A DNA stretch of 64,000 nt from Halodesulfurarchaeum sp. (GCA_042216015.1 JBDGUI010000011.1:1-64000), one strand, 5' to 3'; shown: positions 1 through 51,457, counted from the stretch's first letter. Notes: generated by a model not told the origin, from the letters alone. Made by a program: numbers and translations.

Positions 1-22
1 GGTTCGAATCCGGTCCCACGCA
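1..22 (+). tRNA. 3' end of a tRNA, probably tRNA-Leu (cut by window start)
   Basis: GGTTCGAATCCGG T-arm followed by TCCCACGC-A acceptor strand and a T-run. Matches my recollection of the haloarchaeal tRNA-Leu(GAG) 3' end; the anticodon is outside the window. Confidence 0.75.
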
Positions 23-215
23 TTTTCAGGGACTCTCGCCGTTGAGGGGCGCTTGGGCCCCGAAACGCGAGATCGCGGTCGGAAAGGCGGTCACCGGATG
101 CGAGCCCTGGAAATCGAATGGAGAGAGATTTCCTCCGGTTCGAATCCGGTCCCCCCGTCCCACTTTTTCTGAGCGGAGGGACCACACCCGCTCGAGAAAC
201 TGTGGAGAAAAAGCC
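23..215 (+). repeat. tRNA-trailer structured element, copy 1
   Basis: 17-bp direct copy of the tRNA 3' end at 137-153, inverted T-arm copy at 93-106, and blocks shared with the element downstream of tRNA-Val (ATTTTCAGnGACTCTC; GAGATCGCGGTCGGAAA). Confidence 0.8.
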
Positions 216-36471: not shown

Positions 36472-37614
36472 ATGCGACTGCACGAGTTCAGGGCGAAGGA
36501 GGTCTTCGAGGCGGCGGGGATTCGAACCCCCGACTCGGCCGTCGTCGAGGACGCCGAGTCCGCCCTGCAGGTGGCGGACGAACTGGGGTACCCGGTCGCG
36601 GTGAAGGCCCAGGTCCCGGCTGGAGGGCGGGGGAAGGCGGGGGGAATCGTCCTCGTCGAGTCCGCGACCGAACTCCGGGACGCCGTGCCGGACATCCTCG
36701 ACATGGAGATCGAAGGCTACCCGGTCGAGACCCTGCTCGTCGAGGCGGCCGTCGACGCCGAACAAGAGCTCTATCTGGGGATCACGATGGATCGCAGCGA
36801 GCGACGGCCGGTCGTCATGGCCTCCGCGAGCGGGGGCGTCGACATCGAGTCCGTCGCCGCCGACACCCCCGAAGCGATCGGTCGCGTTCACGTCGATCCT
36901 GCCTTCGGGCTGCACCCCTACCAGGCCCGCAACGCGGTCTACCGCGCCGGAATCGATCGCGAGATCGCCGGCGACGTTGCCGGGGTCCTCCAGACGCTCT
37001 ACGGTGTCTGGACGGAGAGGGACGCGACCGACGCCGAGATCAACCCCCTCATGGTCACCGCGGGGGGCGAAGTGATCGCCGCCGACGCCGTCCTCAACGT
37101 CGACGACGACGCGCTCTTCAGACAGCCCGACCTCGCCGGCATGGACGCCGAGAGCGGTGGGAACGAACTCGAACGGCAGGCCGAGGAGTCCGGGTTCGAA
37201 TACGTTCGCCTCGACGGGTCGGTCGGCGTGCTTGGAAACGGCGCCGGGCTGGTCATGACCACCCTCGACCTCATCGATCACTTCGGGGGCTCGCCGGCGA
37301 ACTTCCTCGACGTCGGCGGCGGTGCTGACGCCGAACGGGTGGGAGCCGCCCTCGACGTCGTCTTCGGCGATCCCAACGTGAAGGTCGTCCTGATCAATAT
37401 CTTCGGGGGCATCACCCGGGGGGACGAGGTGGCCGAAGGGATCAACGAGGCCCTGGAGGCGTACGAATCGTTGCCGGTTCCCGTCGTGGTTCGGCTCGCC
37501 GGGACGAACGCCGCACTCGGGCGCGATCTCCTGACCGATGCCGTCCACACCGCAGCGACCTTCGAGTCGGCGGTCAATCGGGCCGTCGAACTGGCCCAGG
37601 GAGGTGACACGTGA
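36472..37614 (+). CDS. sucC: Succinyl-CoA synthetase beta subunit
   Basis: MRLHE, KAQV.AGGRGKAGG, EINPL, NGAGL, ANFLDVGG, NIFGGI, RLAGTN. Confidence 0.97.
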   Translation: MRLHEFRAKEVFEAAGIRTPDSAVVEDAESALQVADELGYPVAVKAQVPAGGRGKAGGIVLVESATELRDAVPDILDMEIEGYPVETLLVEAAVDAEQELYLGITMDRSERRPVVMASASGGVDIESVAADTPEAIGRVHVDPAFGLHPYQARNAVYRAGIDREIAGDVAGVLQTLYGVWTERDATDAEINPLMVTAGGEVIAADAVLNVDDDALFRQPDLAGMDAESGGNELERQAEESGFEYVRLDGSVGVLGNGAGLVMTTLDLIDHFGGSPANFLDVGGGADAERVGAALDVVFGDPNVKVVLINIFGGITRGDEVAEGINEALEAYESLPVPVVVRLAGTNAALGRDLLTDAVHTAATFESAVNRAVELAQGGDT

Positions 37615-40118: not shown

Positions 40119-40509
40119 GACCTCAGAAGGTACCGGGCCCCGTTTCAGGTGTGAGAAGCGCGAGGGTTCCCGGGCAGCAAAGCAAGACGTGGATGGATCG
40201 GGACGCGAATATTGTTCGCGGCGCGAACCGTCCAGCGGACCCGAGTGCCGCGATTCCCCGAGCGGAACGCTCGGGCCGAGGAACCCCCGAAGGGGGTGAG
40301 GAGGCTTTTGGTCCAGCTTTTGCCAGTGGAGCGAGCGTTAGCGAGCGGAACGCAGCAAAAGGTGGATGGGTCGGGGCGGATTCGAACCGAAATCACTTCG
40401 CTCGCAAGCTCGCTCGAGATAGGGCTCGAATCCGCCGCTCGATTTCCGACCGCGATCTCATCGCAGCGACACAGCAAGCTGATCGCTGCGAGGTGAGAGT
40501 CGCTGAAAA
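40119..40509 (-). repeat. tRNA-trailer structured element, copy 2, with distal hairpin module
   Basis: 24-bp exact copy of the tRNA-Val 3' end at 40366-40389, inverted T-arm copy near 40422-40436, 17-bp block at 40443-40459 identical (reverse complement) to 69-85. Left boundary approximate. Confidence 0.8.
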
Positions 40510-40584
40510 TGGGTCGGGGCGGATTCGAACCGCCGGACTCCTCCATGTCAAGGAGGTGTCATAGCCAGACTAGACCACCGACCC
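40510..40584 (-). tRNA. tRNA-Val(GAC)
   Basis: GGGTCGG..acceptor..CCGACCC-A; anticodon arm CCTCC-TTGACAT-GGAGG; T arm GGCGG-TTCGAAT-CCGCC. Confidence 0.97.
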
Positions 40585-40657
40585 TGGCGCTTGCACCCGA
40601 TGGTACCCGGTCGGAACAGTTGAAGGTTTCGAAACCGCCGATCGAAGGGCACGATTA

Positions 40658-40712
40658 CGAAAGCGTTAAGTAATGTACAATCCTGTTCATCAAGTACCGA
40701 AATAGTACATTG
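40658..40712 (+). promoter_or_regulatory. trpDFEG promoter with TRP-box-like (TGTACA) sites
   Basis: CGAAA BRE-like, TTAAGTA TATA, then TGTACA (40674), AGTACC (40693), AGTACA (40704). Confidence 0.6.
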
Positions 40713-51322: not shown

Positions 51323-51457
51323 GCCCGGGTGGCTTAGTGGTCATAGCGCCGCACTCATAGGGTTTCGAGCTTCGGTGTGGCACGCTCGCAGCTCAGGTCG
51401 ACCGAGCCTTGGACCTGGGACATGCGGAGGTCGAGGGTTCGAACCCCTCCCCGGGCA
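51323..51457 (+). tRNA. Elongator tRNA-Met(CAT) with intron (about 51360-51421)
   Basis: GCCCGGG...CCCGGGC-A acceptor; CCGCA-CTCATA-[62 nt]-A-TGCGG anticodon arm; GAGGG-TTCGAAC-CCCTC T arm. Intron is at the canonical 37/38 position. Confidence 0.93.

Follow-up and report, generated by a model that had tools for sequence, protein, structure and literature searches.

Hairpin units carrying host-matched tRNA 3' ends form tandem arrays behind tRNA genes of Halobacteria and may be miniature insertion units

What are the two similar stretches that follow a tRNA-Leu gene and a tRNA-Val gene on one contig of a Halodesulfurarchaeum genome, and why does each of them contain copies of part of the tRNA that it follows? 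The DNA analyzed here (the window) comprises the opening 64 kb of contig C3 in a 1.68-Mb, 51-contig assembly (G000, 64.5% G+C). It was compared with the rest of its own assembly and with related genomes, among them two complete genomes, G002 and G011, from two different species of the same genus. One module lies behind tRNA-Leu(GAG), at 23-163 on the forward strand, and the other behind tRNA-Val(GAC), at 40367-40509 on the reverse strand (Table 1). The window opens inside the tRNA-Leu gene, and its start and the end of contig C2 overlap by 103 identical bases. In the long hairpin, H2, positions 93-106 pair with 137-150 in the Leu module, and 40436-40423 pair with 40388-40375 in the Val module. 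An earlier note on this DNA had described the two trailers as homologous from a common starting point and as sharing an identical 17-mer. All of the letters and coordinates that it quoted were present in the window sequence, both trailers began directly after the discriminator base, and the 17-mer was exact in both. Over their whole length, the two modules were identical at 79 of 133 aligned columns.

Table 1. Features of the two modules and of the tRNA genes they follow, in window coordinates
Feature	Position	Strand	Remarks
tRNA-Leu(GAG) 3' end, T-loop to discriminator	1..22	+	remaining gene on contig C2
Module 1, T-rich leader	23..37	+	begins directly 3' of the discriminator base; 14/15 identical to the Val copy
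Module 1, hairpin H1	29..76, limits approximate	+	predicted fold; compensatory changes in family alignment
Module 1, conserved 17-mer linker GAGATCGCGGTCGGAAA	69..85	+	exact copies behind tRNAs only
Module 1, 5' arm of long hairpin H2	93..106	+	inverted copy of tRNA-Leu T-loop and T-stem 3' strand
Module 1, spacer hairpin within H2	107..136	+	spacer class recurs in other genomes of the genus
Module 1, direct copy of tRNA-Leu 3' end	137..163	+	137-153 identical (17 nt), 154-163 decayed
T-run (164-168) and terminator-like hairpin behind module 1	159..213	+	repeated trailer unit
tRNA-Val(GAC)	40510..40584	-	
Module 2, leader (40495-40509) and hairpin H1	40451..40509	-	inner limit approximate
Module 2, 17-mer linker GAGATCGCGGTCGGAAA	40443..40459	-	GGTCGG stretch complementary to Val acceptor 3' strand
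Module 2, inverted arm	40423..40436	-	copy of tRNA-Val T-loop and T-stem 3' strand
Module 2, spacer hairpin	40389..40422	-	
Module 2, direct copy of tRNA-Val 3' end	40367..40388	-	exact, 22/22 nt
T-run and terminator-like hairpin behind module 2	40304..40366, approximate	-	

A third copy was found behind tRNA-Val(CAC) at the far end of the same contig, where it is ended by the contig end; it was identical to the Val(GAC) copy at 81 of 83 positions. Only three separate places in the whole assembly had the exact 17-mer, each immediately downstream of a tRNA (Leu-GAG, Val-GAC, and Val-CAC), and the leader motif was likewise confined to sites behind tRNAs. When up to three mismatches were allowed, the window contained four matches to the 17-mer against 0.91 expected. 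Since 2 of 100 shuffled sequences also reached four, it is the exact pair and its position next to tRNAs that carry weight, rather than the fuzzy count. Compared with shuffled sequences, tRNA-Val together with its module folded with z = -7.5 and the Leu module with z = -3.0. An Rfam search of the whole window returned two tRNA matches and no other family at the gathering threshold, and a search of 40150-40700 at E values up to 10 returned the tRNA plus matches at chance level only. A T-loop-like 11-mer at window position 36518 was considered as a further unit and rejected as a chance match; it sits in coding sequence. The tRNA-Met(CAT) gene at 51323-51457 on the forward strand contains a 62-nt intron and has no module downstream; it was found by Rfam, and by ARAGORN only in intron mode.

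In the assembly as a whole, 8 of the 37 tRNAs had their own last 17 nt repeated within 500 nt downstream, compared with 1 of 37 upstream. Three more tRNAs (Leu-GAG, Val-CAC, and Pro-TGG) had copies that were ended by contig ends. Eight of the 37 tRNAs were less than 100 nt from a contig end (on C2, C3, C4, C8, C11, C13, C21, and C44), so the tRNA-linked repeats probably break the assembly.

The earlier note had suggested a search behind other tRNAs, and further copies were found there in numbers far beyond two, as a class-wide family arranged in tandem arrays. In all of the arrays that were read, a unit started directly after the discriminator base and ended in a copy of the tRNA 3' end, and the units always lay on the tRNA strand, directly downstream of the gene. 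Within a unit, the leader, often a T-run, folds into H1 and is followed by a short linker, an inverted arm, and a spacer hairpin. The inverted arm consists of the T-loop and the T-stem 3' strand of the host tRNA, sometimes extending into the acceptor. A direct copy of the tRNA segment spanning the T-loop to the discriminator base flanks each unit at either end. A pattern of an inverted T-loop, 25-55 nt, and a T-loop gave 40 matches in 9 of the 12 genomes of the genus, and the reversed pattern gave none. G002 contained 45 units behind 23 of its 42 tRNA genes, from one to five in tandem, with the maximum of five behind tRNA-Ser(TGA); G011 contained 36 copies behind 23 of 43 tRNAs. Unit length in G002 had a median of 134 nt and a full range of 30-342 nt.

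The proposed sharing of a scaffold by different tRNAs held up in the larger set. An alignment of 21 units from 8 genomes yielded 31 predicted consensus pairs, 14 of which showed compensatory double changes. The linker motif and H1 scaffold were found in 8 G002 units with 6 tRNA identities (the match at Lys being doubtful), and in G000 the scaffold was also present behind Gly, Pro, and Met. Trailers in G002 contained a purine-rich mini-hairpin motif, GA-RC-GNA-GY-GA, with a loop of three bases and G-A closures in tandem. DNA mini-hairpins are known to be unusually stable when a C-G pair closes a G-N-A loop of this size.

That both arms follow the host tRNA was borne out for many further copies, tRNA identities, and T-loop spellings, but for the inverted arm beyond the T-stem the match was only partial. 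At 21 of 42 loci, a host-specific 13-mer covering the T-stem 3' strand and acceptor recurred downstream of its own tRNA, compared with 49 of 1262 foreign pairings. An inverted T-loop was present within 85 nt upstream of 41 of the 45 direct copies, two of the 41 being segmentation artefacts. The T-loop spelling of the inverted arm was associated with that of the direct copy (unbiased two-by-two table with rows 15, 0 and 3, 6; Fisher p = 6e-4). A host with TTCAAAT had an arm with ATTTGAA, TTCAATT was accompanied by AATTGAA, and TTCGAAT by ATTCGA. Since TTCAAAT differs from its own reverse complement, the arm is a genuine inverted copy. Units behind His, Gly-CCC, Met, Lys, Ser, Arg, and Pro tRNAs each carried their own T-loop variant in inverted form. 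Beyond the T-stem, ranking by duplex energy placed the host's own tRNA among the top 3 of 39 in 14 of 41 cases, where 3.15 would be expected. A host-specific 12-mer from the inverted arm identified its own tRNA at 12 of 42 loci against a background of 14.7%, a test that was too loose.

The units were not restricted to one genus. The hairpin pattern of inverted arm, spacer, and direct arm was found in 340 of 401 Halobacteria genomes sampled, representing 80 of 89 genera, and the reversed control was found in none; the figure of 340 is an upper bound because genuine tRNA-Ser(CGA) genes can fit the broad pattern too. Eleven of 12 sampled loci lay behind a tRNA with a matching 3' end. A narrower pattern matched 39 stretches in named Halobacteria records, and in 30 of 42 matches in such records a same-strand tRNA with a matching or near-matching 3' end was present within 450 nt upstream. 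The carriers included Haloarcula, Halorubrum, Natrinema, Halobacterium, Halosimplex, Halorientalis, Halomarina, Natronomonas, Halolamina, and Halodesulfurarchaeum. One genome, G196, contained an orphan unit with a Glu-type 3'-end copy. A matching tRNA was absent from the 20 kb to each side of it, and the closest tRNA-Glu, a divergent one encoded on the other strand, had its own unit of another type. Phage records searched by blastn with the Val module gave no match. The hairpin pattern gave 120 loci in viral contigs; judged by reading, many of these were genuine genes resembling tRNA-Ser(CGA), and others were unrelated to the units. The only haloarchaeal-looking module among them was behind a tRNA-Glu, and none was a virus-borne site. 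In four metagenome contig sets, the contigs recovered were all fragmented and the joints short-sided, as is typical of the tRNAs of other organisms.

Comparison of orthologous tRNAs in G002 and G011 showed that the number of units was unequal at many loci (0 versus 2, 5 versus 2, 3 versus 1, and 2 versus 0). This difference between sister species indicates that units are both gained and lost. The earlier note had recommended comparing such loci for empty sites; no empty-site junction was seen. It had also suggested a mobile element that templates part of itself from the target, and nothing shows such copying.

The clearest case of exchange was at tRNA-Arg(TCT). The first 101 aligned bases, including a 30-nt intron, were identical in G002 and G011, as were the 20 nt upstream of the gene, and the T-arm that followed held the only differences, four in number and including a compensating pair. 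Downstream, G002 retained three copies whose T-stem 3' strand was of the G011 type; two of these were exactly the 3' end found in G011, and the inverted arm of the first G002 unit matched the new 3' end. Gene conversion between nearby direct repeats could be an alternative source of the swapped T-arm. In the Met, Arg-TCT, Leu-TAA, and Gly-CCC arrays, the inverted arm at several positions was that of the 3'-end copy upstream and not that of its own hairpin partner. These upstream-matching arms fit a unit that would bring both arms along, but counter-cases exist: at the Arg-TCT locus of G011 the inverted arm matched the distal copy and not the tRNA, and an automated test of 12 cases assigned 4 arms to the upstream copy and 3 to the downstream copy, with 2 ties and 3 weak results.

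Behind tRNA-Arg(TCT) of G011 there was also a Fic/DOC-family ORF (Pfam E = 3.6e-8) together with a small ORF, both situated between the inverted arm of a module and a partial tRNA 3'-end copy, and no integrase was found at this cargo locus. Fic/DOC homologues were found in 20 of 61 relatives; at 0 of 11 other loci was there a tRNA within 1.5 kb, and one locus had a lone T-arm copy. The homologues elsewhere are thus not linked to tRNAs, and there is no evidence for a travelling cassette.

The unit architecture, the tandem arrays, the host matching, the gain and loss between species, and the swapped T-arm with the old type downstream are established. The explanation that covers them best, with chances that we put at about even, is that the units are miniature insertion units that recombine at the block from the T-loop to the 3' end, supply a 3' end to the tRNA gene while displacing the resident one, and pile up in arrays. 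With the same degree of confidence, neither better nor worse than even, both stretches in the window may be assigned to a large family of insertion units that encode no protein and stand head-to-tail behind the tRNA genes of Halobacteria. A looped-out or circular unit would recombine with a tRNA gene, or with an earlier 3'-end copy, inside or next to the T-loop, either by site-specific recombination or through short homology. It would carry its own 3' end in and shift the resident 3' end downstream, and repetition would generate arrays. Only units with a 3' end that fits the tRNA would persist in the gene, which would result in host matching. The unit so defined would comprise a 3' end, leader, inverted arm, and spacer, and its long hairpin would be intact only in the looped-out or circular state. 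The attachment site would be this hairpin of inverted arm, spacer, and direct arm, and it might be recognised as a folded single strand, in the way that integron cassette sites and the CTX phage site are. The hairpin is read as an attachment site, and the arrays as stacked insertions, because inverted arms match upstream copies, as fits recombination near the T-loop. The circular intermediate, the crossover point, the single-strandedness, and the enzyme are parts of the scheme that we infer.

Neither an excised or circular form, nor an empty-site junction, nor a responsible enzyme was seen in the sequences examined. No recombinase gene adjoined the modules in the window, and none of the Phage_integrase matches in G000 was on contig C3. 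Genomes of the genus had 3-5 tyrosine recombinase matches each, and those that were placed sat at other tRNAs or elsewhere. Three tyrosine recombinase matches in G000 (C10:270-761, C17:33505-33960, and C21:21185-21742) were within a few kb of ARAGORN tRNA calls, and these may be ordinary integrated elements. Tests of strandedness were mixed, and a single-stranded form is therefore not claimed: the sense strand folded better than the antisense strand in 35 of 39 units, but the G-U pairs on the two strands were equal (74 versus 82), and the local-stem count gave 6 A-C and 0 G-T mismatches.

The units may instead be functional trailer RNAs, co-transcribed with the tRNA, cut by tRNase Z after each discriminator base, and serving as small RNAs, decoys, or processing or termination signals, a possibility that we consider rather unlikely but not slight, and one that is compatible with a mobile origin. 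The tRNase Z cut is proposed because the helix at the unit end imitates the acceptor/T-arm stack. The invariable position of the units on the tRNA strand directly downstream, the compensatory changes in the helices, the better folding of the sense strand, and the tRNA-like cloverleaf that ARAGORN sees in some units all argue for this explanation, as does the mini-hairpin motif, which in G002 trailers occurred 39 times in sense and 12 times in antisense orientation, at about 77 times its density in the G000 genome. There is also a precedent in a stable tRNA-His trailer of Haloferax volcanii, whose homology to the units is not established; northern blotting showed a 3' trailer RNA and a precursor, at about 60 and about 120 nt respectively (PMC3495736). 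On the other hand, unit number and order vary freely between sister species, which would be odd for a needed RNA, no Rfam family was matched, G-U counts were alike on both strands, and the local-stem count showed the opposite bias. Moreover, a T-run is a termination signal in archaea, and many units open with one directly behind the tRNA, so that transcription of the parts beyond it may be poor. In the work of Hölzle et al. 2012, tRNase Z reportedly failed to cut newly predicted tRNA-like elements of H. volcanii in vitro, which also speaks against the trailer RNA explanation.

Direct repeats of the 3' part of a tRNA, such as flank the units, are the classic mark of tyrosine-integrase insertion, according to the parts of two papers that were available (PMC4383910, PMC3119063). 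The units might accordingly be decayed attL/attR remnants of large integrative elements, proviruses or plasmids that entered tRNA genes and lost their insides. Tyrosine recombinases are present in the genomes, and the Fic/DOC gene in G011 lies between an inverted arm and a partial 3'-end copy, as such a remnant might. The sizes of the units are tightly clustered about the median, however, with one conserved layout and no spread of deletion products; an inverted arm and structure-preserving changes would be unexpected in scars, and one scaffold stands behind at least six tRNA identities. In five genomes all copies of the Val and Leu 3' ends were within about 300 bp of their own tRNA, with no kb-scale repeats, and in G002 the tRNAs within about 10 kb of recombinase genes were without units (coordinates compared by eye). 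The units do not mark the ends of large elements still in place, and descent from lost ones appears improbable. A similarly low probability is given to a local origin that involves no mobility, in which tandem duplication and unequal crossing-over would take place between 3'-end repeats, gene conversion from the tRNA would refresh the direct copy, and hairpin-templated correction of the palindrome would hold the inverted arm to the same sequence. Such events could account for the segment bounded by an 11-nt leader repeat by which the Leu-TAG arrays of G002 and G011 differ and for exact repeats of whole units inside arrays (the m2 = m4 type of Ser-TGA), and direct repeats about 130 bp apart favour conversion. 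They leave unexplained why nearly identical leader, H1, and linker scaffolds stand behind unrelated tRNAs, why spacer classes recur across families of the class, and why a foreign tRNA variant is present in the copies of some arrays. Chance similarity or an assembly artefact might be suspected in a window that opens at a contig break inside a tRNA, from an assembly in which so many tRNAs are close to contig ends, but the same units occur in complete single-contig genomes and the reversed-pattern control was zero in 401 genomes, and this explanation has hardly any probability left. Several known layouts were also sought in the arrays that were read and rejected: those of C/D-box or H/ACA guide RNAs, of bulge-helix-bulge introns, and of a primer-binding site complementary to the CCA end were absent, and a bridge-RNA-type guide was discarded since the arms pair with each other and not with adjacent target halves.

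If the units are miniature insertion units, integron cassettes are among the known kinds closest to them, all of which differ from them in some defining feature. In both cases tandem units stand behind one fixed site and each ends in an imperfect palindrome, which, as in attC, has conserved ends and a variable middle. Unpaired bases at fixed places are a further shared trait; in the present units they form a 2x3 internal loop and, across from the acceptor part, a bulge. Unlike an integron, the anchor is a tRNA 3' end and not attI, the arrays stand behind 23 different tRNAs in G002, no integron-type integrase is found alongside, and the units, about 95-160 nt long, are almost all without genes. 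The arms of the palindrome, unlike those of attC, are copies of the host tRNA, and single-stranded use is only proposed here. Recombination between a hairpin attachment site and a duplex target is expected to leave, at one end of the integrated form, an inverted and a direct copy of the target with a loop between them. The units share this arrangement with CTX phage and other Xer-exploiting elements that have a folded single-stranded attP, but their target is the T-loop region of a tRNA rather than dif, and they are without genes. We know of no single-stranded replicon for tRNA-linked units. Integrative elements that target tRNAs, among them those with the T-loop sublocation of tyrosine integrases, and their non-autonomous derivatives (CIMEs) also have a direct repeat from the T-loop to the tRNA end, replace the 3' end and displace the old one, and accrete in tandem; tandem integration of archaeal elements is mentioned in the available part of one paper (PMC8371274). 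They differ from the present units, which measure 100-150 bp, have a host-matched inverted arm, occupy more than half of the tRNA genes (in G002 and G011), and have neither flanking element genes nor a linked integrase.

Haloarchaeal MITEs and PATEs derived from IS200/IS605 are likewise short, gene-less, hairpin-forming, and repeated, but the units described here are strictly linked to tRNAs and their terminal inverted repeat is the host tRNA end. A Y1 transposase was found in 2 of 5 unit-bearing genomes of the genus and not in the other 3, two of which are incomplete. No tRNA-linked PATE appears in the part of the Haloquadratum PATE paper that was available, where only ordinary partial-tRNA prophage ends are described (PMC3119063). 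The t-elements of Haloferax and of plant mitochondria are similar in that a tRNA-like acceptor/T-arm helix placed on either side of another RNA could direct tRNase Z or RNase P, but in the present units the T-arm bases pair with the inverted copy and there is no T hairpin. The words "hairpin", "miniature", and "remnant" were absent from the available text of a review of archaeal tyrosine recombinases, and in that of a prokaryote-wide MITE survey tRNA was mentioned in a reference only. Literature searches, in the text portions they reached, gave no description of such tRNA-linked hairpin units, and the family, very common in haloarchaea, is apparently undescribed.

If the units are active, more than half of the tRNA genes in a whole archaeal class are sites of constant small-scale recombination that is able to swap the tRNA's own T-arm, and the units would be miniature mobile DNA of a new kind, whose attachment site is made of target sequence. 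This would be relevant to tRNA gene evolution, to genome assembly, as contigs break at the arrays, to the annotation of tRNAs and pseudo-tRNAs, and to the search for an enzyme that reads hairpins. A more far-reaching proposal, offered tentatively and with well under an even chance of being right, is that Halobacteria have an integron-like platform anchored in tRNA genes, in which hairpin units whose folded attachment site is an inverted plus a direct tRNA 3' end are inserted and excised at the T-loop by a putative recombinase, so that over half of the tRNA genes would have their 3' ends continually renewed and cargo genes would occasionally be captured; the hairpins, if released or read through, might also serve as RNAs. 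If the units are trailer RNAs instead, they are an abundant and unrecognised class of RNA. The question is directly testable because the haloarchaeal set is large and the organisms are cultivable and genetically tractable.

With regard to annotation, ARAGORN called some modules 'tRNA-Ser(cga)' with mismatched stems (one at 1470-1563 of its locus). They were rejected as genuine tRNA genes, given the mismatched stems and an RF00005 search of G002 that found no tRNA there, and modules of this kind are likely to be a source of pseudo-tRNA annotations. Two further kinds of unit were observed in trailers. A second repeated trailer unit, consisting of a T-run and a long hairpin closed by an A-run, was found behind many tRNAs of the genus, and was sometimes located inside arrays with a further 3'-end copy behind it. 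At three G002 loci there was another type of unit that ended in the T-stem 3' strand and acceptor only, preceded by a conserved GGGACT, and this type carried the purine-rich motif in antisense orientation.
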